From a virus, in IMG/VR virus record IMGVR_UViG_3300046535_001869, positions 45,300-109,299 of that record: a stretch of 64,000 nt of DNA. The stretch is one strand, 5' to 3'. Positions 44,683 to 61,739 of the stretch are shown here, in pieces. Below the pieces are notes generated by a model, which searched no databases, was not told where the DNA came from, and saw only the letters and a program-made list of their open reading frames with translations. Position 1 is the first letter of the stretch, and the number at the start of each line of letters is the position of its first letter. A program made the translations under genes and the position numbers.

Positions 44683-45417
44683 ATGGAGACAGCGACGCCC
44701 CTTTTAGACACCCTCCGCCGCGACGGCATCGCCCGCGTCTACCCGCCCCTCGGCGCCGGCCCGGCGGCCGAGCTCGCCGCGTACCTGCGCGCCGCGCCGT
44801 GCTACCCGGGCCACGTGCGCGTGTACGGCGACGGGGTCGCGCGGTCGTGGGATGTTACCTCGGAGATATGTGACGTCTGGTGCCATTCCTTGGAGACGAT
44901 CGTCCTGGCGCCCCATCTCTGGGACCTGGCGATTGGCCTCCTCCCGGCCGCCGCGCGGTACCTCGACGCCCCACCACGGCTCTATTCGATGAATGCCTTC
45001 TGGTCGCGCGCGTCCGCTACCGAGCCGATGCTTGACCTCCAGACCTGGCATCGCGACCGCGACGACGATAAGTTCCTCGCGCTGTTCGTCTACGGGACCG
45101 ACGTGCTATGCGAGGAGGACGGACCGCACCGGTTTATGATCGGGACCCACGACCCGAAGTGCGTGATGGCGAACTACGGACCTCCGGTCTTCGGCCCTGC
45201 CGGCACGACCTTTCTCGCCGACACGCGCGGCCTTCACATGGGGGTGAAACCAACGAGCCGCGAGCCACGCCTAATCGTCTGGGCGCGTTACGGCATCTCC
45301 GAGCGCCCGTGGGCCTACGGGCAGGATCAACTGGCGCCGGTCGCGGCAGCGCGACTCGGGGATCGCTATCCACCGGACGCGGCGACGCGGAAGATGGTGG
45401 AGCTCGTCGCGGCGTGA
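44683..45417 (+). CDS. PhyH-like 2-oxoglutarate/Fe(II) dioxygenase
   Basis: WHRD (HxD), LFVYGTDV..DGPH, GPAGT..DTRGLHMG, downstream Arg. Confidence 0.75.
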   Translation: METATPLLDTLRRDGIARVYPPLGAGPAAELAAYLRAAPCYPGHVRVYGDGVARSWDVTSEICDVWCHSLETIVLAPHLWDLAIGLLPAAARYLDAPPRLYSMNAFWSRASATEPMLDLQTWHRDRDDDKFLALFVYGTDVLCEEDGPHRFMIGTHDPKCVMANYGPPVFGPAGTTFLADTRGLHMGVKPTSREPRLIVWARYGISERPWAYGQDQLAPVAAARLGDRYPPDAATRKMVELVAA

Positions 45418-48122
45418 AGTCCGCCACCGTAACCCGACTCCCCGGGACCCGGCGCCAGCGCGCCGCGAAGGCAGCTCCGTCGATCTCGCAGCAGGCGGTC
45501 GATACCTCAGCCCAGCGGCGCCAGCGGCGCGTCGACCCGTTCGCGATGCCCCACCATCCGCCCGGCGTGATCCCCGCGGGCGAGGGTGGTTCGAAGATCG
45601 CCCAAGATTCCGCGATAGACGAGGCTTGGGTCTGGGCGCAGCAGTCGTTCATCAACAGCGCGGTCGCCGAGGGCACGACGTTCCTCGGCTACGCCGCGCT
45701 CTCGATCTTGGCCCAGCGCGCCGAGTACCGCGTCATCTCCGAGGAGATCGCCTCCGAGATGGTCCGCGAGTGGATAGAGCTGAAGGCGGTCGGAGACGAG
45801 GACAAGACCGAGCGGATCGCTCAGCTCAACGCTGAGATGGAGCGGCTCGATGTCCGCGCGGCGTTCGAGCGCGGCGGCGCGGTCTACGACGGACTCTTCG
45901 GCCGCGGCCACGTCTACCTGGATACAGGTGACTCGGACGATCGCGACGAGCTGAAGACCCCGATCGGCGACGGGTGGAACTTGATGAGCCGGTCGAAGAT
46001 TGGGCTCGAGGGCCACAATGGCAGGACTGAGACTAAAAAGATCCTCGCCCTGCGCCCGGTCGAACCCGTCTGGTGCTATCCGACGACGTACGATTCCAAC
46101 GACCCGCTGAAGCCAGACTGGTATTGCCCGACGACGTGGCACGTTATGGGGAAGGAGGTCCACGTCTCGCGCCTGCTGACGTTCATCGGTCGTGAGGTTC
46201 CTGACCTGTTGAAGCCCGCCTACTCCTTCGGCGGCCTCTCGATGTCCCAGATGGCCAAGCCGTACATCGACAACTGGCTGCGCACGCGCCAGTCGGTCAG
46301 CGACAAGGTGGCCTCGTTCAGCGTCCGCGGGATCAAGACCCCTGGCCTGGCGGCCTCGCTCAGCGCCGGGGGCGACCTAATCTACAAGCGCGCCGAGATC
46401 TTCAACAACATGGTCCAGAACTCCGGGCTGATGCTGCTCGACAGCACCAACGAGGAGTTTTTCGAGGTCGCGACGCCGCTCGGCGGGCTCCATGAGCTCC
46501 AAGCGCAAGCGCAGGAGCACATGGCTTCTGTGAGCAGAATACCTCTTGTCAAGCTCCTGGGCATCACCCCGTCCGGCCTGAACACCTCGACCGAGGGCGA
46601 GATCCGCTCGTTCTACGACTGGATTGCTAGCTTCCAGGAGCACCTGTTTCGCAAGAACCTCCACGCGGTCATCGGGTTCCTCATGCTCGGGCTGTGGGGA
46701 GAGGTGGACCACGGGATCAAGTTTGAGTTCAAATCCTTGTGGCAATTGGACGAGGCGGCCCAGGTCGCGGTTGAGAAGACCAAGACAGACATCGACGACG
46801 CGAATGTCGCGATGGGTTCGGTCAGTCCCGAGGAAGTTCGCAAACGGATCGCTCAGGATCCATCCTCGACCTATGCCGGCCTCGACCTCGACCCGGACGA
46901 GCTCCCCGAGCCGCCCGGCGGCGAGATGGAGATGGGCGAGCCAGGATCGGAACTGATGGGCCATAATGGCGGCCCAGAGCTGAACGACGAGGGTGAGGTT
47001 CGCTCCCCACCGTCGCCTGGTGCCCCAAAGGGCGCGATCCCCGGCGCACGCAACCCGCGTGATAACTCGCTGTCCGTTACCTCGCGCGCCGGCAACCTCG
47101 CCTCCCCGACCGGTGGGTTCGGCGGTGATTCTTTAGCTGAGGAGGTTCATGTCTATCTTGAGGCTGTAAACGACTCCCGTCACGCTAATGACAAGTGGAA
47201 TGAGAGCGACCATCCTCGAGGCAATCCCGAGAACTCCGGCGAATTTACCTCAGGAGGCGGTGGCGGTAAAACAAGTCATCTTCATCCATCAGAAGGCAGC
47301 GGAAAAGAACGCACCGCGGTTGGTGGTGGGGGCCTTCCAGAACATATCGTTAGTCTGGCGATACCCCCTGCATGGACTGACGTGAAATACAGTTCGGATC
47401 CAAAAGCCGACCTTCTGGCGGTTGGTCGTGATGCAAAAGGCCGCGAACAGCGAATATACTCGGATGCATACCACGCGGCCCAGGCTGAGGCTAAGTTTCG
47501 ACGAATCTCCGAACTGAGTGACAAGTTCAAAGATATCAAAGCGCAGAACGAGGAGCTGCGGAAATCGCCCGATAAACGTGTCCGTGATTCTGCTGACTGC
47601 ACAGCCCTAATCATGTCGATGGGTATCCGTCCTGGCGGGGAATCGGATACTGGCGCCGATAAGTACGCTTATGGTGCGACGACGCTCAAAGGCGAGCACG
47701 TGGTTACCGAATCTGATGGTTCGGTGCGCTTGAAATTTGTTGGCAAGAAGGGCGTTGATCTCGATCTACCGGTCGAGGATCGAGGTCTCGCGCATATGCT
47801 GGTATCCCGGGCACGCAGGGCCGGCGCGAGTGGGCAGATCTTCCCCAGTACGAGCGCCGGTGCACTCCTTGGGCATGTTCACACGTTGGACGGTGGTGGG
47901 TTCAAAACAAAGGATTTTCGGACCCTGCATGGCACCAGAACAGCGATCAAAGAAGTTGCCCGCCAACCGGTACCGAGGTCGGCCTCGGCCTATAAGAAAG
48001 CCGTGCGATCAGTCGCGGCAGCGGTTGCAAGAACATTAGGCAATACCCCGACAGTCGCGCTACAATCATACATCAACCCCGTTGTTTTTGCCCGATGGAG
48101 ATTGGCAAGTGGCGCAGCATGA
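45414..48122 (+). CDS. Portal protein (DUF1073-like) fused to C-terminal DNA topoisomerase IB
   Basis: Portal: FLGYAALS, VHVSRL, YSFGGLS, IPLVKLLGITPSGLN. TopIB: IPPAW, GRDAKGR, GIRPG, FVGKKG, KDFRT, LGNTPTVALQSYI. GTG start overlaps the upstream stop. Confidence 0.9.
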   Translation: MKSATVTRLPGTRRQRAAKAAPSISQQAVDTSAQRRQRRVDPFAMPHHPPGVIPAGEGGSKIAQDSAIDEAWVWAQQSFINSAVAEGTTFLGYAALSILAQRAEYRVISEEIASEMVREWIELKAVGDEDKTERIAQLNAEMERLDVRAAFERGGAVYDGLFGRGHVYLDTGDSDDRDELKTPIGDGWNLMSRSKIGLEGHNGRTETKKILALRPVEPVWCYPTTYDSNDPLKPDWYCPTTWHVMGKEVHVSRLLTFIGREVPDLLKPAYSFGGLSMSQMAKPYIDNWLRTRQSVSDKVASFSVRGIKTPGLAASLSAGGDLIYKRAEIFNNMVQNSGLMLLDSTNEEFFEVATPLGGLHELQAQAQEHMASVSRIPLVKLLGITPSGLNTSTEGEIRSFYDWIASFQEHLFRKNLHAVIGFLMLGLWGEVDHGIKFEFKSLWQLDEAAQVAVEKTKTDIDDANVAMGSVSPEEVRKRIAQDPSSTYAGLDLDPDELPEPPGGEMEMGEPGSELMGHNGGPELNDEGEVRSPPSPGAPKGAIPGARNPRDNSLSVTSRAGNLASPTGGFGGDSLAEEVHVYLEAVNDSRHANDKWNESDHPRGNPENSGEFTSGGGGGKTSHLHPSEGSGKERTAVGGGGLPEHIVSLAIPPAWTDVKYSSDPKADLLAVGRDAKGREQRIYSDAYHAAQAEAKFRRISELSDKFKDIKAQNEELRKSPDKRVRDSADCTALIMSMGIRPGGESDTGADKYAYGATTLKGEHVVTESDGSVRLKFVGKKGVDLDLPVEDRGLAHMLVSRARRAGASGQIFPSTSAGALLGHVHTLDGGGFKTKDFRTLHGTRTAIKEVARQPVPRSASAYKKAVRSVAAAVARTLGNTPTVALQSYINPVVFARWRLASGAA

Positions 48123-50646: not shown

Positions 50647-51812
50647 TCCGCCTCGTCTCCCTCGGCGGCACCGGCGACGCGTACCTCATCTGCGCGCTGG
50701 CGAACCATGTCCGCGATAAGTATGGCGACGACGTCACGATCGCCCTGAAGGAGACCCAGGCTGCGATCCCGGAGATGTTCGGCCTGCAATACGACCCGCG
50801 CCCCGTAGATGAAATTCGCGACGTAGAGCGCGACGGGACGCTCCACCGCGAGTACGAGAACACCCTGGGTCCCGGCCGCGTCTTCTACGCCCACCCCTGC
50901 TTCACGCGCTCCGGCGTCCGGATCGACGAGCTGACGACGCTGCCGCACGCCATATCCCAGGCGGATATGTACCGCGCGCTGCTCGGCCTACCGCTCGATG
51001 CGCCTCTGGCGCTTCCGAGACTACCAACCCCCGAGCCGCGCCCTAACACCGCGGTCCTGCTCACCGAGGCCGTCTCGTGGCCAAACGACCAGCCGGCCTT
51101 CTGGACTGCCTTAGCCGGCGCCCTTCGCGTTGGCGGCTGGAGCGTGGAGATACCGGGTTCTTCCCCATCCCTGGAATCTCTTCTATTGCTCGCCGCCAGC
51201 GCGGAGATGGTCGTTGGCCCGCAGTGTGGAGTGATGTCGATCCTCGTCGCCGCCGAGTTCCCGTGCCGCAAGGTCCTCGCCACGCCCTCGATCGACGAGG
51301 GTTCGGGTTTCCTGGTCGGGCGGACGCTGCTCAAGAAGACATACCCGTACGCCTACGTGACGAAGTTCACCGGGCAGGACTATGACGTCGAGGAGTATCG
51401 GGTCCGCGCTGAGACTCATGGCGAAATCATCGCCTCGATCCTTGTGGCTCCGCGGACCCCGCGCGATCCGCGTCCGGTAACGACCGTCGAGATGCCGCTG
51501 ACCCCCGGCGACTTCCTCGATCGATTGGCGGTTCTTACGGTCAAAGTTCGGCGTGGACTTCTACTGGCTAGCCGTGAGGCGAATCGCTATGCGGAGGCGC
51601 TTCCCGAGGAATGGCTTAGGCTCTTGGCCTCGTTGGTGGATCTCCACGAGACGACCTTCGACCGCCTCGCCACGGACGTCCCCGATGCGCTAGAGAATAA
51701 GTGGCGCGACGACCACGTCGCCGTCACCCTGAACCGCCAGCGGGTCGAGCTGAAGCGCGCAATCGACGACGAGCTCCGCGCGCCGTACCGCGAGGTCAAG
51801 GATTACTATTGA
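50643..51812 (+). CDS. GT9 (heptosyltransferase-like) glycosyltransferase with C-terminal DUF6165-like domain
   Basis: LGGTGDAYLICAL; SLESLLLLAASAEMVVGPQCG; PGDFLDRLAVLTVK...NRQRVELKRAID...EVKDY. Confidence 0.65.
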   Translation: MIRLVSLGGTGDAYLICALANHVRDKYGDDVTIALKETQAAIPEMFGLQYDPRPVDEIRDVERDGTLHREYENTLGPGRVFYAHPCFTRSGVRIDELTTLPHAISQADMYRALLGLPLDAPLALPRLPTPEPRPNTAVLLTEAVSWPNDQPAFWTALAGALRVGGWSVEIPGSSPSLESLLLLAASAEMVVGPQCGVMSILVAAEFPCRKVLATPSIDEGSGFLVGRTLLKKTYPYAYVTKFTGQDYDVEEYRVRAETHGEIIASILVAPRTPRDPRPVTTVEMPLTPGDFLDRLAVLTVKVRRGLLLASREANRYAEALPEEWLRLLASLVDLHETTFDRLATDVPDALENKWRDDHVAVTLNRQRVELKRAIDDELRAPYREVKDYY

Positions 51813-51997
51813 TGCCGCGCTGGTGGCCCACATACTTTACCAACGCCGATCGCGCGCTGCTCTACCGTATCGCGGCTGATCAGGGCGAGATCCTTCGTCT
51901 CCTTCGCACGTTGATCGACCAGAATCGAGCCACCGGGATACGGGTCGAGCTTGGTACCCCCACCGATAAGTCGGACAACCATGGCAAGAGCAGCTAG
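51812..51997 (+). CDS. Small protein with LGxPTDK tail
   Basis: MPRWWPTYF...ATGIRVELGTPTDKS. Confidence 0.65.
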   Translation: MPRWWPTYFTNADRALLYRIAADQGEILRLLRTLIDQNRATGIRVELGTPTDKSDNHGKSS

Positions 51998-52412
51998 TCA
52001 GAGCGTTCAGACGACGATCCCCCTAGATCCGAATTCGGATCTGCGCGCCGAACTCGTTGCGGCGCTCGACGTCCTAGAGCCGCAGATCCGGGGTCTAACT
52101 GATCTCAGCTACATCCCCGGGTCACCCGAGCTGGAGACGTTCGTCGCGGCCCAGCTGGCGGCCCATCGTCGTCGGCGCGACCTGATCAATGCGGTCATCG
52201 GCGGGCTCGACTCGGTCATCATCGAGCGTACCGAGCTGGAGACCGACGGTTATCCGACCACGTCGACCGTTGCGATACCGATCAACGTCTTCCGCGAGCT
52301 TACGAACCAGGTCGACGATCTTGAGAAGGCCGCCTCGGTCTTCGAGGCGGAACCGGCGCCGACCGTTAGCGTTGCGCTCGGTAGTCCCACCGACAAACCA
52401 GAAGGAACATAG
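51981..52412 (+). CDS. Helical protein with LGxPTDK tail
   Basis: ...APTVSVALGSPTDKP. Confidence 0.7.
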   Translation: MARAASQSVQTTIPLDPNSDLRAELVAALDVLEPQIRGLTDLSYIPGSPELETFVAAQLAAHRRRRDLINAVIGGLDSVIIERTELETDGYPTTSTVAIPINVFRELTNQVDDLEKAASVFEAEPAPTVSVALGSPTDKPEGT

Positions 52413-52414
52413 AC

Positions 52415-52750
52415 ATGGCACAGCTCACCACTCGCCAGATGGTTCACGCCACCCTCGCAGTCACCAAGGCCGATGGCTCGGCCGGTCAGGTTGAGGCCGG
52501 CTCGGTCGTCTGGGCCTCCTCGGACGAGACCGTGGTTCTCGCTGCGCCGAGTGCCGACGGAATGGAGGCGGACATCAGCTCCGTTGCACCGGGCGGTCCG
52601 GCCCGCTTCACGGTGACGGCGGACGCCGACCTCGGCGCCGGGGTGGTGAACATCATCGGCGTCTCGGAGGACATCCTCGTGACGGCCGACCCCCGCGACC
52701 AGGCCTCGATCATCAATATCACGCTCGGGGCGCCGACCGATAAACCGTAA
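52415..52750 (+). CDS. Ig-like (BIG-type) protein with LGxPTDK tail
   Basis: VVWASSDETV, FTVTADADLG; ...ASIINITLGAPTDKP. Confidence 0.75.
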   Translation: MAQLTTRQMVHATLAVTKADGSAGQVEAGSVVWASSDETVVLAAPSADGMEADISSVAPGGPARFTVTADADLGAGVVNIIGVSEDILVTADPRDQASIINITLGAPTDKP

Positions 52751-53550
52751 TGCCCCGCGCCAGGACGATCGCCCCGGTCCGCCCGTCCGCGGCGATCGAG
52801 GCGCTGTACCGACGTCGGCTCGATGCGCTTCTCGACGAGATGCACCGGAGCCTGGTCTATTGGATCAGTGCCAACTACCGGGCGAACGAACCGGAGATCG
52901 CGAAGCTGGCGACGGATGACAGCCCGGCAGCCAACCTCCGTTCTGCCTTCCGGCGCTTGGCACGTCGGTGGACTAGCCGGTTCGATGATCTTGCCGCAGA
53001 CCTCGCGAAGTATTTTGCGACCCAAACGGCCCAAAGAAGTACCTCGGCGCTCCAGTCGATGCTGAAGAAGGGCGGGATGACCGTTCGGTTCAGGATGTCC
53101 CGGCCCGTCAACGACATCGTCAGCGCAGCTGTCGGAGAGAACGTCTCGTTGATCAAGAGCATCGCCCAGCAGCACCTGACCGCGGTTGAGGGGCACGTGA
53201 TGCGCTCAGTCCAGACTGGGCGCGACCTGGGCACGCTGGCTAAGGAGCTCCAGGACCAGTTTGGGGTGACGAAACGTCGCGCGGCCCTGATCAGTCGTGA
53301 CCAGAACAACAAAATGACTGCGGTCGTTACTCGCGCGCGGTTCGTCGAGCTCGGCGTTCAGGAGTGTCAGTGGGTCCACTCGTCGGGCGGAAAGGTTCCT
53401 AGACCATCGCACGTCAAGGCGGGGAAGGAAAAGACGAAATTTGATCCAAAAATCGGATGGTTCGATCCAGCAATTGAAAAATACATTTGGCCAGGGACAG
53501 AAATAAATTGCAGATGTGTAAGTCGACCAGTTATTCCTGGTTTTTCTTAA
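52750..53550 (+). CDS. MuF/SPP1-gp7-like minor head protein
   Basis: ENVSLIKSI, RAALISRDQNNK, WVHS...RPSH, PGTEINCRC. Confidence 0.9.
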   Translation: MPRARTIAPVRPSAAIEALYRRRLDALLDEMHRSLVYWISANYRANEPEIAKLATDDSPAANLRSAFRRLARRWTSRFDDLAADLAKYFATQTAQRSTSALQSMLKKGGMTVRFRMSRPVNDIVSAAVGENVSLIKSIAQQHLTAVEGHVMRSVQTGRDLGTLAKELQDQFGVTKRRAALISRDQNNKMTAVVTRARFVELGVQECQWVHSSGGKVPRPSHVKAGKEKTKFDPKIGWFDPAIEKYIWPGTEINCRCVSRPVIPGFS

Positions 53551-54404
53551 CTCTTCCATAAGTCCAACCTTCTGGTATTACATCGTTAGACATTAGCTTT
53601 TTATTGCGTTTTCCATTATTAATCCATAGAAAACCTTTCTTAATATTACTATTGAATGGAACTCTTCCTAATTTCCAATTTTCTGGTACTGTTTCATTAA
53701 TATCGATACGATGATTTATTAACTAACTCAGTCGCCGATATATCTCGATTGATTATTCCGTTAGTAATTTTGATGATAGATCCGCGGGTAAGCCGGCTTT
53801 TAAGAGCGGATTTTCTCCTAGATTCAGGATTAGGCAAAGTTCTGATGATTAATCCTGCGTGTACTTTACTCCAATATTCTATTGATGCTTGAGAACAAGA
53901 TTCACGAGTCTTCGCAGAGTGGGTCCAACCATCGTCGTGTCGTTTTTCCCAAGATAATTTAACTGAGCTACTGGTCTTTTCTCGTTGCTCTTCAGTTGCT
54001 ACGTGACTCGCGCTGGCTTCTGATATCTTTTTCTTAGATTCATCTGTATGCTTGTAGCCCAGAGTTATTTGATTACCGAGCATCGCTTGAACCATTGCTC
54101 TTCTAGCGACGGCATATTGCCAGGATGATATAATTCGTTTTCCATATTTGTTGTGGGTCATTAAGCGAAGCGCCCGGCACATTTTCTTTTGATTTTGGCC
54201 GCTAGTGCATTTTGTAAGTAACCAATGAGCTAGAAAATGTTTTCTAAATGATAATCTAACTACCTCTTTGTTATTTTTTCTTTTGAATGATCTAGGAATA
54301 GGATGATGTAGCTCGGTATCAGATCCTACGTCACTTTTTGAAAGTATTTGCACGTACCGACGATAGTACTTGTTATCGACGAGCATTTCTGGATCAAATC
54401 GCAT
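53531..54404 (-). pseudogene. HNH/NUMOD3 homing endonuclease-like gene with a frameshift in its C-terminal repeats
   Basis: ELHHPIPRS, HFLAHWLL, HTDESKKKIS; TNG..PEGW..GR repeats continue in another frame after ~53720. Confidence 0.65.
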
Positions 54405-54989: not shown

Positions 54990-57900
54990 GTGTTCGGGGT
55001 CGCGACGGCTCGGGATGTGTTCGAGGAGTCAGCTCATCCCAGAGGGCAGCCCGATAATCCTGGTCAGTTCGCTAAGAGTTCGGAGCACGTGGCCTATCAT
55101 AAAAAGATGGGTCAGTATCATAATTCAAATTCAAAGTCCGTAGAAGATAAGCACGGATTTGCGGCCGTATCCCACTTCGAGGCGGCCTCAGCCCATAGGA
55201 AGAACGCTCCGGAGGCGAAGCGTTTATCAGATAAGGCGAAGACGGCGACTGCCGCAACCGAGTACGGCGTCTCCCGCGAGCCGCAACAATCGCGTAAGAA
55301 GAACTTTATTCCGGAATCCGATGATGAGATTACTCCTGAGGTCCTGAGGAATGTCCTGTCCCAGCTTCCACCAGAGGCCAGGACCCCGGCTGGTGCTGAG
55401 AGGTTATTCAACAGCAAGATCGCCGAGCTTAACTCGCGCGGCGACCTAACATTTTACCATGAGAGCGATGGGGACCAAGTATCGTCGATGCGACAGAAGG
55501 GTCTCGTCGATAGGGACCATGGGATCTACGCAGCGATAAATGCGCCAAGCAATTTCATTACGTCTCCGGTCAAAACGGAAGTCCAGTTCAAGGTTCCCCC
55601 GAGGAATAGCCGGGACATCGTCCCAGACGAGAGCTTTAGTTGGTCCGAAAAAATATCGCCGCACCAGATACTGCTTTTAGCTCATCCGGATCTGAAGGGA
55701 GCCTATGTCAATGCTGGAGACGCGATCCCTTCGAGTCAGATCAAGAGTGTTCGTCTAATTCAAGGTAAGGCCCACGATCGCATGCCCTTGGCCATCGCCA
55801 CCGACCCTCCGGTCTCCGAGAAGCAGCGCCGCGCGATGTTCGCGGCGAAGGCCGGTCATTCGACCCTAGGAATCCCGCAGTCCGTAGGCGAAGAGTTCAC
55901 CTCTGCCGACCCCGGCGGCAAGCTCCCCGAGCACGCCAAGGCCAAGGACATGGCCCGCACCAAGTGGTCCGCGCTGAAGCGCCTGCTCCTGGAGTGGATC
56001 GACGAGGAGCGGGCCGAGCCGGAGCACGCGACGGACGCCGAGAAGCGCCCCAAGCCAGACGTTGGCTTCGAGCACCCGGCCAAGGGCACCGACCACTGCG
56101 CCGATTGCACTCACTTCGAGGCCCCGGATGCCTGTGAGCTCGTCGAGGGCCGTGTCCAACCGCGCGACTGGTGCAAGATGTTCCTGGCGAGCCAGACGCG
56201 ACCGGAGGCGGAGGATGAGGACCCCAGGGTCCGCGCCGCCGGCATCGCTTTCGTCACCCCCGAGGGCAAGACCCTGTTCCTCCGCCGCTCCGACGCGAGC
56301 GACCACGAGGGCGAGTGGTGCTTCCCCGGCGGAGTCATCGAGGCCGGCGAGACGCCGGAGGAGGCCGCGATCCGCGAGGCGAGCGAGGAGACGGGTTACA
56401 GCGCGAGGGAAGGCGCTGGGGGCATGAGACAGGCGCACAGGCACTTACACGACGGCGTCGAGTTCACGACGTTCTACCAGCCCGTGGCAGCGCCGTTCGA
56501 CCCGAATCTCAACGACGAGTCGACCGAGCACGCGTGGCATCCGATTGATGCCGCGCCGGACCCGATCCATCCTGGGGTGCGCGCGACGATCGACGAGATC
56601 TTAGCGAACCTGGATGACTCGGCCGAGAACGAGGCGGAGGATGCGGTTAAACACGACCCGAAGACGGGGCAGTTTACGTCGTCCAGTGGAACGTCCTACT
56701 CGACAAAGCCGAAGGAAAAAGGCGGCGGATCGACGGTCCACCATGAGTCCGGAGAGATCGGCAATACGAACTTCATCGCTCCGAACCCGAACTATCCCAA
56801 GGACAAGAGCGGATATACTGCCTGGAGCAGCCATACCAAGGGATATGTCGGTAGTCCGCGCTCTACCGCTGGAGCTAGTGCGGCCTCACGAACGATGGGG
56901 AGCCTGCTGGGTCGAAAGCCGACCATCAATCCTCGCTTGTTTACCTCGGAGCATCACGCCATTAAGGGTTTGATCGAGCATCACGAGGCTCATAAGGCCT
57001 CGGCTCAGGACACCCCGACTACCTCCGCCCTCCCAGACGCCGCGCGCCGCGCCAGGTTGCGCGGGCGCGGGGACCTGGCGCGGAGGATCGAGGCGGAGGA
57101 TGCTGAAATCAAGCGCGATGAGCATGGTCAGTTCGCCGCTAGCCAGGGCTACAACGAGGTTGCGCACAACCAGGAGGGACAACCCTGGACCTGGGCAAAG
57201 AAGATCGGGGCCGATCCATCCGGCACGACACACACGGTCAATATAAAACACGCCGGTGAGCCGAAGTCGTTCATCGCTACGCGCCTTTTTAAGCCATCCG
57301 GGACGATCTCTGGTGGTAGTGTCCTGGTCGGGAAGCACGCCTCCTTCAAGGAGGCCCACGAAGCAAGCCTAAAAGCAATCAACTCGCTGCCGCGGATGAA
57401 GGATGCGCCGCCGTTTGGTCAAGATGAGGTCAAACACGACCCGAAGACGGGGCAATTCACGTCAGGTGAGGGAGCTGCTGGCTTTGGTGATCTTCATAAG
57501 ACCTACGGAAAGGGTGGATATCTAGATTCCCATACTCTGGAAGAATCTCACCCTCATACCGTTGCTGAATTTTCTAAGGCGTTTGTTTCTCATGATCCTG
57601 GTTCCTATGAGCAACACCAGGAGTTGAATAAGACCAAGAAGAGGTTGTCGGCGGATCCTTCTCACTCCTCCGGCGCCGTGGAGGATACTCATAAGATGAT
57701 AGCCCAGCGTTTAAGGGCAAATCACGGCACGCCGGCACGTCCAGCAGCGGTGCAGCGAACGGCAGCGATGAGTCGTTATCTGAAGGATAAGGTCGGCGGC
57801 CGAGCCAAAGACTCCGGCATCGGCCCCAACGGCCACCTGACCGTCGGCGCGCAGACCGACCCGAACGGCGGGTTCGGCTGGGCCATCGGCGGGAAGGTCG

Positions 57901-58565
57901 GGACCGGGAAGCGGCAGATGCGGATGTCGTCAGCGGTGAAGTCTGGACGGGGGCTCGCCAACGTCGCTCAGGACATGGCCCTAGCTACTGACAAGCGGAC
58001 GTACGACAAGGACGGGCGCCTCCACGTTGACCGCGCTAACGTGACGAAGGCCTGCGTGAACCCCTACACCGGCGCCGAGATCAACGCAGTAATGAAGGGA
58101 ACTGACAACTGGAAGATGCTCGACCCGGATCGTCGCTATGCGCTTCTGCGTCATCCCGACGAGCTCCGCAAAGCGGTCGACACGTTTAACGGTCTCCCGA
58201 TCTTGTTCACTCACAAGCCAGCCTCGGCCCAGGACCATCCGCACGAGATTACGGTTGGTGCTACCGGGAACGATGCCTCGTGGGAACCTCCCTACGTTCG
58301 CAACAGCTTGAGCATCTGGCCCGCCTATGCCAGCGAGGCGATCGACGACGGTTCGCAGCGTCAGTTGTCCATGGGTTACGCCTATCGTGCAGAGATGACC
58401 CCAGGTGTTTACGAAGGCGAGAAATATGACGGCGTGATGCGCGACATCGTGGGCAACCATCTCGCGATGGTTCGCGAAGGTCGTGCAGGGGCGGACGTCG
58501 CGATCGACCGGGCGCTGATCTCCTGGCGCGGGATCGCTGCGGCCATCCGAGAGCTGAGGACCTAA
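54990..58565 (+). CDS. Polyprotein: tagged modules, ART-like, HiPIP-like and Nudix domains, C-terminal DUF2213 prohead protease
   Basis: FYHES..RQKGL; CADC..C..WC; GGVIEAGETPEEAAIREASEETG; RTYDKDGRLHV..VNPY.G.EI..LSMGY..GNHLAMVREGRAG. Confidence 0.85.
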   Translation: MFGVATARDVFEESAHPRGQPDNPGQFAKSSEHVAYHKKMGQYHNSNSKSVEDKHGFAAVSHFEAASAHRKNAPEAKRLSDKAKTATAATEYGVSREPQQSRKKNFIPESDDEITPEVLRNVLSQLPPEARTPAGAERLFNSKIAELNSRGDLTFYHESDGDQVSSMRQKGLVDRDHGIYAAINAPSNFITSPVKTEVQFKVPPRNSRDIVPDESFSWSEKISPHQILLLAHPDLKGAYVNAGDAIPSSQIKSVRLIQGKAHDRMPLAIATDPPVSEKQRRAMFAAKAGHSTLGIPQSVGEEFTSADPGGKLPEHAKAKDMARTKWSALKRLLLEWIDEERAEPEHATDAEKRPKPDVGFEHPAKGTDHCADCTHFEAPDACELVEGRVQPRDWCKMFLASQTRPEAEDEDPRVRAAGIAFVTPEGKTLFLRRSDASDHEGEWCFPGGVIEAGETPEEAAIREASEETGYSAREGAGGMRQAHRHLHDGVEFTTFYQPVAAPFDPNLNDESTEHAWHPIDAAPDPIHPGVRATIDEILANLDDSAENEAEDAVKHDPKTGQFTSSSGTSYSTKPKEKGGGSTVHHESGEIGNTNFIAPNPNYPKDKSGYTAWSSHTKGYVGSPRSTAGASAASRTMGSLLGRKPTINPRLFTSEHHAIKGLIEHHEAHKASAQDTPTTSALPDAARRARLRGRGDLARRIEAEDAEIKRDEHGQFAASQGYNEVAHNQEGQPWTWAKKIGADPSGTTHTVNIKHAGEPKSFIATRLFKPSGTISGGSVLVGKHASFKEAHEASLKAINSLPRMKDAPPFGQDEVKHDPKTGQFTSGEGAAGFGDLHKTYGKGGYLDSHTLEESHPHTVAEFSKAFVSHDPGSYEQHQELNKTKKRLSADPSHSSGAVEDTHKMIAQRLRANHGTPARPAAVQRTAAMSRYLKDKVGGRAKDSGIGPNGHLTVGAQTDPNGGFGWAIGGKVGTGKRQMRMSSAVKSGRGLANVAQDMALATDKRTYDKDGRLHVDRANVTKACVNPYTGAEINAVMKGTDNWKMLDPDRRYALLRHPDELRKAVDTFNGLPILFTHKPASAQDHPHEITVGATGNDASWEPPYVRNSLSIWPAYASEAIDDGSQRQLSMGYAYRAEMTPGVYEGEKYDGVMRDIVGNHLAMVREGRAGADVAIDRALISWRGIAAAIRELRT

Positions 58566-59646: not shown

Positions 59647-60615
59647 ATGGCAAACGGGTTTCAGGCGAGTGTTGGCACCCAGCCCGCCCCCGCCGTGGCC
59701 GGCGACTTCGCCGATCACAATCCTCGCGTCTCGGTCATGGCCGGGCCGGGAGGCTTCGTAGCAGGCGGCTCCGGCGTTATCGTCGGGCACTTCGCCTGGG
59801 CCTCGTACGCGGGGATCGACCCCGACAACGCGCCGACGATCGTTAACAGCTTCGGTGGCGGTGCGCCGACCGGGTTTGTCCACCGCGAGCAGCAGGCGCT
59901 GATCACGACCTACCTGGCCGACGCCGGGATGGTCGTGCCCCAGGGCTTCGGCGTCACCTTGTTCAACGAGGGCGGCTTCTGGGTCAAGAACGACGGCACG
60001 ACCGCCGCGCTGATCGGCCAGAAGGCGTACGCGCGCAACTCCGACGGCGCGGTCCTCTTCGCCGCCACCGCAACGCCGGGCACCGCGACCGTCACCGGCT
60101 CGATCGGCCCGGTCGCGACCACCTCGGTCACCGGCTCGATCAGCGGCAACGTCCTCACGGTCACCGCGGTCAGCTCCGGCACCCTCTATCCCGGCTCGGT
60201 GCTCACGGGCACGGGCGGCGGCGGCGTCGCGTCCGGTTCTACGATCGTATCCCAGCTCTCGGGCACGACCGGCGGCACGGGCACGTACTCGCTCAGCGTC
60301 CCCAACCAGACCGTGACTTCGACTACGATCACGGCCGCCGCGGGCCTCCTGACAGTCGCCTCGGTCTCGTCCGGCGTCCTAGCGGTCGGCGACGTCCTTA
60401 GCGGTACCGGCGGCGGCGGTGTCACGTCCGGCACCACTATCACGGCGCTCGGCACCGGGACGGGCCTCACGGGTACGTATATCGTGACGCCGACCCAGAC
60501 CGTCGCGGTCGGCACGGTGATCACCGCCGGGGTCACGACCGAGACGAAGTTCGTCGCGATGTCCTCGGGCCTCGCGGGTGAACTCATCAAGATCAGCTCC
60601 TGGCCCCTCGGCTAA
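59647..60615 (+). CDS. Head decoration protein with two Thr/Ser/Gly-rich repeats
   Basis: GFQ..V...[29 protein letters not shown]; repeats LTV..VSSG.L..G.VL.GTGGGGV.SG. Confidence 0.8.
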
Positions 60616-60641: not shown

Positions 60642-61739
60642 ATGAACGCAACGGAAGCTCTCGCGGCCTTTCGCGGAGACAAGGCGCACCTGGAGGAGCT
60701 CGGCATCGCCTGGCAGCCGGGCACCGAGCCAATCGGCTACGTCACGCCGGAGATGAAGCGCGACTACCGGATCGCGATGGACGCGCTGCCAACGCTGACT
60801 ACCGACCCGAACTCGGGCGTCCCGGCGATGCTCACGACGTTGATCGACCCGAACGTCTACGAGGTCCTCTTCGCCGCGAACAAGGCGGCGGTGATCCTCG
60901 GCGAGCTCCGGAAGGGCACGTGGCTCGATCAAACCGCGATGTTCCCGGTCGCCGAGGCCACCGGCGAGACCAGCACATACGGCGACTTCAACGAGAACGG
61001 TCGGGCCGGCGTCAATACCAACTGGCCCCAGCGCCAGGCGTACCTGTTCCAGATCATCAAGGAGTACGGTGAGCTGGAGCTGGAGCGTGCGGGGCTGGCC
61101 CGGATCAACTGGGTCTCGGAGATCGACAAGGCGGCGGCCTTGAACCTCAACAAGTTCGCCAACCTGACGTACTTCCGCGGCGTCTCGGGCCTCCAGAACT
61201 ACGGGCTACTGAACGACCCGAACCTGAGCGCCTCTATCACCCCGGCGACCAAAGCGGCCGGCGGCGTGACGTGGTTCTCCGGAACCAGCCCGAACGCCAC
61301 GGCCAACGAGGTGTACAACGACATCCTGGCGACGTACACGCAGCTGGTGGTTCAGACCGCGGGCCTGGTCGAGATGGACACTCCGCTGAAGCTGGCCCTG
61401 GGAACGACGAATGCGGTGGCGATGAAGTTCATCAACACCTTCGGGTTGACCGTCGCGGACATGCTCGACAAGACGTTCCCGAACCTGAAGATCGAGTCGG
61501 CGGTGCAGTACAACGCGCTGTCAACCCAGAACACCCAGGGGAACCCGGCGGGCAACCTGATGCAGTTGATCGCCGACAACGTCGAGGGCCAGGCTACCGG
61601 CTTCTGCGCGTTCAACGAGAAGATGCGGTCACACCCGATCATCCGCGCCACCTCGTCGTTTAAGCAGAAGGTGACCGCGGGTACTTGGGGCGCCGTACTG
61701 CGTTTCCCCGCTGGTATAGCATCGATGGTCGGAATTTAA
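60642..61739 (+). CDS. Major capsid protein (DUF2184-like)
   Basis: IAMDA, NSGVPAMLTT.IDP, KGTW, YGD, RQAY.FQ..YGELE, YGLLNDPNL, GTWGAV. Confidence 0.9.
   Translation: MNATEALAAFRGDKAHLEELGIAWQPGTEPIGYVTPEMKRDYRIAMDALPTLTTDPNSGVPAMLTTLIDPNVYEVLFAANKAAVILGELRKGTWLDQTAMFPVAEATGETSTYGDFNENGRAGVNTNWPQRQAYLFQIIKEYGELELERAGLARINWVSEIDKAAALNLNKFANLTYFRGVSGLQNYGLLNDPNLSASITPATKAAGGVTWFSGTSPNATANEVYNDILATYTQLVVQTAGLVEMDTPLKLALGTTNAVAMKFINTFGLTVADMLDKTFPNLKIESAVQYNALSTQNTQGNPAGNLMQLIADNVEGQATGFCAFNEKMRSHPIIRATSSFKQKVTAGTWGAVLRFPAGIASMVGI

Follow-up and report, generated by a model that had tools for sequence, protein, structure and literature searches.

A matched C-terminal tail peptide on a free-standing Ig-like protein and its unrelated neighbours in phage genomes

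Introduction

Immunoglobulin (Ig)-like domains are among the commonest accessory domains of tailed phages, and to our knowledge those described in phages are joined covalently to a structural protein or else bound via a dedicated domain. In this work, a cassette of three consecutive open reading frames (ORFs), termed A, B and C, was analyzed in a 64,000-nucleotide stretch of phage DNA (the window; virus record IMGVR_UViG_3300046535_001869, positions 45,300 to 109,299), in which a free-standing Ig-like protein (C) and two otherwise unrelated neighbours end in the same short peptide. This window covers the right-hand 64 kb of the complete 109,299-bp genome of a soil phage, which has direct terminal repeats.

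Chaperone-usher pili are built by donor-strand complementation and exchange, and their cap and adaptor subunits carry the donor strand. The cassette resembles them in having an Ig-like subunit with an open edge, whose sheet would be completed or extended by a proposed neighbour strand of alternating hydrophobic residues. Unlike the pili, the cassette proteins are cytoplasmic and have no chaperone, usher, signal peptide or periplasm, and no homology connects the two systems; the donor is C-terminal in the cassette and N-terminal in the pili, the Ig domain may complement itself in cis, and binding in trans is only a proposal here. A scan of 20 window proteins and 16 proteins from related loci revealed no chaperone or usher family, and no signal peptide was seen when the N-termini of A, B and C were read.

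Short C-terminal binding segments are carried by scaffolding proteins, encapsulin cargo and Hoc. Similar to the ends of encapsulin cargo, scaffolds and proteases, a conserved short C-terminal peptide is found in the cassette on unrelated proteins near an HK97-fold shell gene, but those peptides bind the shell interior, whereas the constant partner in the cassette is the Ig domain and the cassette travels among different head genes. Another type of head gene organization is the nested in-frame pair, such as lambda C/Nu3 and Mu I/Z, which gives a long and a short product with a common C-terminal assembly domain.

T4 Hoc, T5 pb10 and N4 gp17 are small non-essential Ig-fold decoration proteins encoded with structural genes, which attach via a non-Ig segment, with surfaces or glycans as the presumed ligands of their Ig part (PMC7602432). 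The C-terminal tails of phage L Dec have no structure in the monomer and fold into a three-stranded beta-helix only when the protein assembles (PMC7602432). The cassette resembles Hoc, pb10 and gp17 in fold and genomic setting but differs in that its putative attachment peptide is common to unrelated helical proteins and matches gene by gene. No homology to Hoc, pb10, gp17 or a decoration-protein family was detected by Pfam, PHROG or tblastn of 50,697 phage records, and the literature search returned no description of donor-strand or other strand complementation, or of matched C-terminal tails, among phage Ig-like or decoration proteins. The cassette is widespread and undescribed, and has no family annotation.

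Results

A, B and C belong to the head operon, where they lie downstream of the portal gene and upstream of the MuF gene, and their stops and starts overlap or nearly abut. The ORFs and their terminal peptides (tags) are located in the window as follows.

51812-51997, + strand: ORF A, 61 amino acids (aa); start overlapping the upstream stop codon (TGATG)
51981-52412, + strand: ORF B, 143 aa; its ATG at 51981 overlaps the end of A (17-nt overlap)
52415-52750, + strand: ORF C, 111 aa; 2-nt gap after B; its stop overlaps the MuF ATG (TAATG)
51929..51970, + strand: tag of A, A-T-G-I-R-V-E-L-G-T-P-T-D-K; matched by the tail hidden Markov model (HMM), 8 residues from the stop
52356..52397, + strand: tag of B, A-P-T-V-S-V-A-L-G-S-P-T-D-K
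52703..52744, + strand: tag of C, A-S-I-I-N-I-T-L-G-A-P-T-D-K

The C-terminal ends read ...ATGIRVELGTPTDK plus 8 variable residues in A, ...APTVSVALGSPTDK plus 4 residues in B and ...ASIINITLGAPTDK plus 1 residue in C. The original prediction, which was made from the sequence of the window, had claimed a common C-terminal tag on the three consecutive ORFs, and this was confirmed. The common peptide exceeded the extent given there and covered 14 residues, with Ala at -8, alternating hydrophobic residues and then L-G-x-P-x-D-K; in A, B and C it took the form h-x-h-x-L-G-x-P-T-D-K, and the hydrophobic residues stood at -5, -3 and -1 in all three, in the alternation of a donor strand. PTDK and G.PTDK were found at three sites only in all six frames of the window, namely the ends of A, B and C, and the back-translated tag pattern gave 3 forward hits, 0 reverse hits and 0 hits in the reversed control for the whole 109,299-bp genome. 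The occurrence of the tag in three neighbouring ORFs is real and far above chance. Five of the six shared tag codons differed at the third position in at least one of the three genes, so the likeness is in the peptide and is not a DNA repeat. No further tagged protein was detected in the 109-kb genome or within +/-10 kb of the related loci (L numbers; related proteins are given P numbers).

The tail was conserved well beyond the window phage. It was retained in the alignment of 97 near-length homologues of C and in most of the 281 representative relatives of B, and an anchored tail was identified in 182 of 247 B/C relatives, with the consensus Q/x-A-[SAT]-x-h-x-h-x-L-G-x-P-x-[DP]-K, in which A, G and K were present in 163, 165 and 176 of the 182 sequences, respectively. 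For A one homologue was recovered (P0281, 75% identical), which keeps the tail exactly to the Lys and diverges in the residues beyond. When 23,879 ORFs from 80 viral loci and the window were ranked with the tail HMM, the top ranks went to the C-terminal ends encoded by the Ig gene or by its immediate upstream neighbour. Among type-1 B genes independently recovered from metagenomes, all six that had room downstream were directly followed by a C gene. The Ig gene also had other, mutually unrelated partners whose tails matched the Ig tail of the same genome, including B-type proteins, A-like proteins of 52-75 aa (L025, L028, L029, L035, L058), a second protein of about 104 aa encoded downstream of the Ig gene (L069, L072, L079) and a 165-aa protein (L021). 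Helix-plus-tail modules similar to A were located upstream of the Ig gene or fused to it (P0064, L025, L028, L029, L058). Most loci contained two tagged proteins rather than three. The constant element of the cassettes is the Ig module with its tail, and the variable element is the upstream module, which is either fused or carries a copy of the tail.

Within each genome, the tails of B and C were matched. For 17 distinct B-C pairs, the last six residues agreed at 4.41 positions on average, compared with 3.34 +/- 0.17 after the partners were shuffled between genomes, and none of 20,000 shuffles reached 4.41. The excess lay entirely in the variable positions, with pairs such as PTDK/PTDK, PEDK/PEDK, PSAK/PSAK and PAPK/PAPK. 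The match was kept despite different codons, as 41 of 75 shared tail residues in the type-1 pairs were encoded differently, which indicates that selection acts on the peptide. The same behaviour was found in a second tail class (..GLD...T..PQPVP..), where four metagenome B proteins were followed not by C but by another small beta-rich protein with the same second-type tail; in L102, 14 of 16 tail residues were identical and 10 of these 14 had different codons, and L104, L112, L114 and L083 showed the pattern seen in L102. Gene conversion as the source of the matching tails was ruled out by these codon differences, which affected most of the type-2 shared residues as well. A reciprocal Lys-Gln swap between the tail end and a conserved N-terminal Gln, which could have pointed to an isopeptide pair, was dropped since no clean reciprocal pattern was obtained.

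Some B relatives (P0150, P0207, P0210, P0247) ended in a third kind of tail (..ETG[DQ]FNP..) instead of LGxPxxK, which hints that B modules may carry alternative address peptides. This third tail was loosely similar to the HDPKTGQF-type peptides repeated in the 1191-aa Nudix-protease polyprotein of the window phage. In another 109-kb viral contig (L086:7956-9214), a weakly B-like protein without a tag adjoined an ORF labelled as similar to glycosyltransferase (GT) family GT2 from its N-terminal sequence only.

The modules that are separate genes in the window phage were joined in frame in other genomes, in the order module, tail, linker, Ig domain, tail. Such fusions were of the B type (P0211, P0249) or of the A-like helix type (P0064, L076); a search with P0211 returned no viral locus. 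In addition, a large class of homologues of about 200 aa was recognized (related loci L020-L090, proteins P0250-P0266; for example L027:9722-10294 and L031:3079-3699), which consist of a coiled-coil-like N-terminal part, one or two strands, and then the Ig domain and tail. In 27 of 29 distinct long ORFs, a Shine-Dalgarno core was located 4-13 nt before an ATG at the start of the Ig domain, compared with 9 of 49 for the other in-frame ATGs of the same ORFs and 12.5% for random ATGs. The retained ATG and Shine-Dalgarno core suggest that a short free Ig-plus-tail product is probably also made from the long-form genes. The long homologues resemble lambda C/Nu3 and Mu I/Z in the internal start, but the part that is shared is the Ig domain and tail and not a scaffold; the window phage differs from both pairs in that its modules are separate genes. 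The Ig domain and tail also occurred with long Pro-rich extensions beyond the tail, and at the N-terminus of a 714-aa protein (L052:11932-14073, - strand), where a Pro-rich linker connects them to a large domain without family match. These cases indicate that the tail need not be a free C-terminus, and the 714-aa protein may be a large protein that is attached through this system. The L052 locus additionally contained a long-form Ig gene with a similar tail.

The original prediction had described A and B as helical adaptors and C as an Ig-like domain. For B, the AlphaFold2 (AF2) model, with a mean predicted local distance difference test (pLDDT) of 91.1, contained helices at residues 19-43, 49-88 and 101-118, followed by the tail as coil (pLDDT 81-89), and the sequence was conserved at its N-terminus (..DPNP.LR..) and in a DGYP motif. 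Fold searches with B gave generic helical hairpins at Z <= 9.6, which is below the level that is meaningful for helical proteins. The helical nature of B thus stood, and A was judged to be probably helical from its sequence alone. The description of C was borne out: nine strands in an Ig-like sandwich were modelled at a mean pLDDT of 89.8, and the layout is a free-standing Big_2-like Ig domain (residues 1-91), a 5-residue linker, the tag and 1 residue. The modelled sandwich was superposable on solved Big_2-type domains at Z 8-9.8, with VIA Z scores of 9.8 for SbsC, 8.8 for LigA, 8.1-8.9 for the C-terminal domain of lambda gpV and 8.3-8.4 for Big_2-CBM56, and a phage SU10 domain was also among the best matches. 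The gpV alignment (PDB 2L04) covered 77 residues, with a Foldseek E of 5.9e-3; this domain exemplifies the Ig-like domains that are appended by frameshift to, or inserted into, phage structural proteins, and it belongs to the same fold class as C, but such domains are covalently joined to a capsid or tail protein, whereas C is free-standing and has the putative docking tail. BIG2 proteins in BFVD were matched with E down to 2e-7, and ESM Atlas returned unnamed viral clusters only. By sequence, none of A, B and C matched a Pfam or PHROG family. C had no match to Pfam Big_2 (PF02368) at E<=10, no Big_2 match was present across the whole genome, and a sequence-profile search of PDB with the C alignment gave chance matches only. 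The C homologue P0020 (57% identical) scored 27.1 bits against Big_2 (cut-off 22.8), aligning residues 7-70 to profile positions 12-68, and the relative P0258 scored 17.4 bits, which is under the cut-off. C is the sole Ig domain of its family in the genome.

The position of the tail on the Ig domain was approached by mutual information over 156 non-identical C sequences (effective number 138), and the statements on tail structure made here rest on monomer models, this covariation and comparative anatomy. The Ig topology was recovered: residues 3-7 were coupled in parallel to 87-91, which is the A'-G pairing of I-set and Big_2 domains, and residues 9-11 were coupled to 52-54 (B-E). The strongest tail couplings connected residues 97/99 with 14/16 in strand B, in parallel register, and residue 103 with 83/84 at the start of strand G, which would place the tail at the B/G edge of the Ig domain. 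The Big_2 match of P0020 begins at position 12 of the 79 profile positions, and the structural alignments of C begin about 14 residues into the lambda gpV Ig construct, which we take to start near residue 156. Both offsets fit a missing first strand, and with residues 3-7 paired to strand G, C may lack an N-terminal strand over the outer edge of strand B. Throughout the Ig family, strand G and the tail are separated by 2-6 residues, and with such a short linker the site at the B/G edge is reachable in cis. Together with the matched neighbour tails and the module-tail-Ig-tail fusions, this covariation supported the earlier proposal of a tag that docks as a beta-strand and goes with the Ig domain. 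The further proposal of a trans donor-strand polymer of C was to be abandoned if the Ig domain was completed by its own tail and the tails did not bind in trans; the covariation register is compatible with docking in cis, which speaks to the first half only.

The other features of the head operon and its surroundings are listed below.

41761 and 42563: small and large terminase genes
45108-48122: fusion of portal and type IB topoisomerase (TopIB)
Between the portal-TopIB fusion and the methyltransferase gene: zincin-like protein, 490 aa
49934-50488: class I methyltransferase (Methyltransf_24), 184 aa
50523..51812, + strand: 429-aa ORF, called a GT in the original prediction; its stop overlaps the start of A, and it lies outside the conserved cassette
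52750..53550, + strand: MuF-like head morphogenesis gene (Pfam Phage_Mu_F 6.2e-11; phrog_324 9.4e-77)
53697-54404, - strand: gene for a homing endonuclease (phrog_655, NUMOD3 motif), located in a lower-GC stretch that separates MuF from the protease polyprotein
54990-58565: Nudix and DUF2213-protease polyprotein, 1191 aa
After the Nudix-protease polyprotein: scaffold-like gene, followed by the two capsid genes listed next
59647-60615: cement-type minor capsid protein (Pfam XM1_gp53_minor_capsid / Phage_cement, residues 5-153)
60642-61739: major capsid protein

The cement-type protein contains two Gly/Thr-rich repeats of about 65 residues each ahead of the last strand, which are probably a surface-exposed insertion. 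A methyltransferase 49% identical to the 184-aa enzyme of the window was encoded at L114:680-1261, directly downstream of a cassette of B and an Ig-like protein with second-class tails; this was seen in one locus only, apart from a weak match in L080, and a functional link between methyltransferase and cassette is possible.

The placement of the cassette varied among phages. It was located between the MuF and protease genes in L003, L009 and L083, in the terminase-portal gap in L004, divergent from the terminase in L019, past the tail and lysis-like genes by an integrase-like gene in L018, and amid small genes and tRNAs in Ralstonia phage RP13. The head location that had been proposed for the system therefore holds for the window phage and some relatives, while in others the cassette lies after tail and lysis genes or among accessory genes; it is not always in head modules, and a virion location is predicted as likely for the uncultured window phage. 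The packaging and head genes of cassette-bearing phages had no tblastn-detectable similarity to one another and belonged to different PHROG terminase and portal families. Its carriers are uncultured phages and prophages of Proteobacteria and Acidobacteriota from soil and freshwater, among which the cassette is widespread. When 50,697 GenBank phage records were searched at the DNA and protein level with the region, B, C and P0092, no match was obtained. With a long-form homologue as query, ORF216 of phage RP13 (LC554890.1; L093:5989-6336) was matched, which is the sole, distant relative among sequenced cultured phages; it encodes a 115-aa Ig-plus-tail protein with the tail ..ADAPVDQP and an Ala/Pro-rich end, and is uninformative on function.

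Discussion

Our work supports a reading in which the tail is an edge beta-strand with a polar key for a single Ig site, into which A and B plug and which the tail of C maybe fills in cis; we hold it tentatively, as possible rather than probable. A, B and C would be parts of one small phage protein assembly joined via the shared tail. The tail would consist of two parts, an amphipathic beta-strand (A-x-x-h-x-h-x-L) and then a short polar key (G-x-P-x-x-K), and would belong to the Ig module, where it would lie along the open edge to which strand B and the beginning of strand G contribute, the place of the first strand in canonical Big_2 domains. The tail of C could fill the site of its own Ig domain in cis, and the helical A and B, with interchangeable copies of the tail, would attach to the Ig domain in trans by strand complementation or exchange. 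Adaptor-Ig complexes would be the outcome, and possibly short Ig chains if the tail of one C is displaced and binds the following C. Elsewhere among phages the arrangement would have become covalent, through in-frame fusion of a coiled-coil or B module to the Ig domain and tail, and with the internal ribosome-binding site and ATG kept.

Such a single Ig site accounts for the like tails in each genome, the restriction of tags to cassette members, the mobility of the cassette among unrelated head genes, the replacement of the tail by fusion, and the presence of C as the sole such domain in its genome. Given that C is the only Ig domain of the family in this genome, if the tails need an Ig site, it is the site of C. 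The cis-compatible register, together with the occurrence of the Ig domain and tail inside larger proteins, suggests that C can be a closed monomer. From these observations we infer a contact between tail and Ig domain, binding of the A and B tails in trans, and a complex that would serve as a virion appendage.

Several results weigh against this reading. The couplings between tail and Ig domain were weak, 0.17-0.33 compared with 0.38 for the best core pairs, and they are confounded by subfamily structure and blind to the difference between cis and trans; within the main subfamily, the comparison of variable tail positions with Ig positions was dominated by subclade markers and was not decisive. 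The AF2 monomer models of B and C gave the tails a pLDDT of 81-91, yet no strand was assigned to them. In a comparison of the tail profile with a canonical tandem Big_2 protein (L091), no significant match was obtained at domain junctions or first strands, so the equation of the tail with strand A rests on topology and not on homology. Because the couplings are weak and confounded and the profile misses the canonical Big_2 strands, the placement of the tail is a conclusion that we infer. In the long forms, the strand preceding the Ig domain showed no lineage-specific excess of similarity to its own tail (self 16.7 vs cross 15.4). The stoichiometry of three tails per single Ig site is unexplained. 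Furthermore, the B-C matching was restricted to the polar tail end, with no excess in the strand part, and would also fit recognition by a phage-specific third party.

That last point leads to the main rival, in which the tail is an address tag by which A, B and C are each delivered independently to the same third-party site, such as the capsid, cement, portal or a host protein. Matching in the polar G-x-P-x-x-K end is what a single phage-specific pocket followed by both tails would produce. Here and in L003, L009 and L083 the head module holds the cassette, close to the genes for MuF, protease and capsid, and the head operon of the window phage carries other apparent cargo, namely the portal-TopIB fusion and the Nudix-protease polyprotein. 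However, a fixed third party is difficult to reconcile with a cassette that moves among phages with dissimilar packaging and head genes and is elsewhere found outside head modules. The tag was also on no other protein of the genome or of the surroundings of the related loci, it was conserved even where it is internal, as in the fusions and the 714-aa protein, and the constant element is the Ig partner. We consider this address-tag explanation rather unlikely.

A plug-and-socket appendage was also considered, in which coiled-coil or helical adaptors and Ig proteins with interchangeable, genome-specific C-terminal strands self-assemble by strand exchange into non-covalent chains displayed on the virion as an adhesion fibre, and the polar tail end is a code against cross-assembly of co-infecting phages. 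An adaptor or a long isoform would initiate the chain and many short Ig-plus-tail units would follow, supplied by a separate gene or by the nested start. We regard this elaboration as unlikely.

The full model of the original prediction goes further, with C polymerising head-to-tail into a capsid filament, A and B nucleating or capping it, and the neighbouring enzyme glycosylating it. All the evidence for the single-site reading is also compatible with a daisy chain; a nested short Ig-plus-tail product in excess over the long form is what an initiator/extender system needs, and the short linkers from strand G to the tail resemble the interdomain linkers of tandem Ig arrays. On the other hand, the covariation register permits docking in cis, and the Ig domain and tail also form the N-terminal domain of larger proteins or are followed by long Pro-rich extensions. 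The glycosylation part found no support: the 429-aa ORF had no Pfam match at E<=1, no PHROG match (no GT family among these) and no PDB sequence match, its fold was not modelled, and no relative of it was present in 110 related loci. The Thr of the tag was replaced by Ala or Val even in relatives 78-86% identical, and was found in only 38 of 156 sequences. The filament model as a whole is therefore judged quite improbable.

A tail-to-tail zipper, in which like tails pair as a small intermolecular beta-sheet or beta-helix and no site on the Ig core is used, would have an analogue in phage L Dec (PMC7602432). Homotypic pairing explains why like tails are needed within a genome, and the tails were modelled as neither helix nor strand in the monomers. 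Dec, however, is a homotrimer with a 40-residue tail, whereas in the cassette different proteins have a common tail of 14-22 residues. With two tagged proteins and not three in most loci, a tail that is kept in single fused proteins, and tail positions that covary with positions of the Ig core, a zipper is very unlikely.

Finally, the idea that the tail is an enzyme signal, for cleavage by a prohead or zincin protease, for modification (for example by a methyltransferase acting on Lys) or for turnover, is hardly credible in spite of the nearly invariant Lys of the main class (176/182), the methyltransferase next to the L114 cassette and the proteases of the head operon, since the Lys is changed to Gln or Arg, or is missing, in other tail classes of the same behaviour, almost none of the related loci has the methyltransferase, the zincin or the 'GT', and a 9-residue amphipathic strand and a constant Ig partner would not be needed.

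If the single-site reading is true, the cassette represents a third solution for phage Ig-like domains, in which a free Ig module and unrelated adaptors are joined by a short matched peptide. The tail peptide is kept identical within each genome through protein-level selection. ORF216 of Ralstonia phage RP13 could be a potential experimental entry point. If the pairing of tail and Ig domain is true, it would provide a rule for the attachment of accessory proteins, and the small, orthogonal, co-evolved pairs of peptide and domain would be candidates for coupling tags. The same reading would also explain what two sizeable families of hypothetical phage proteins do.

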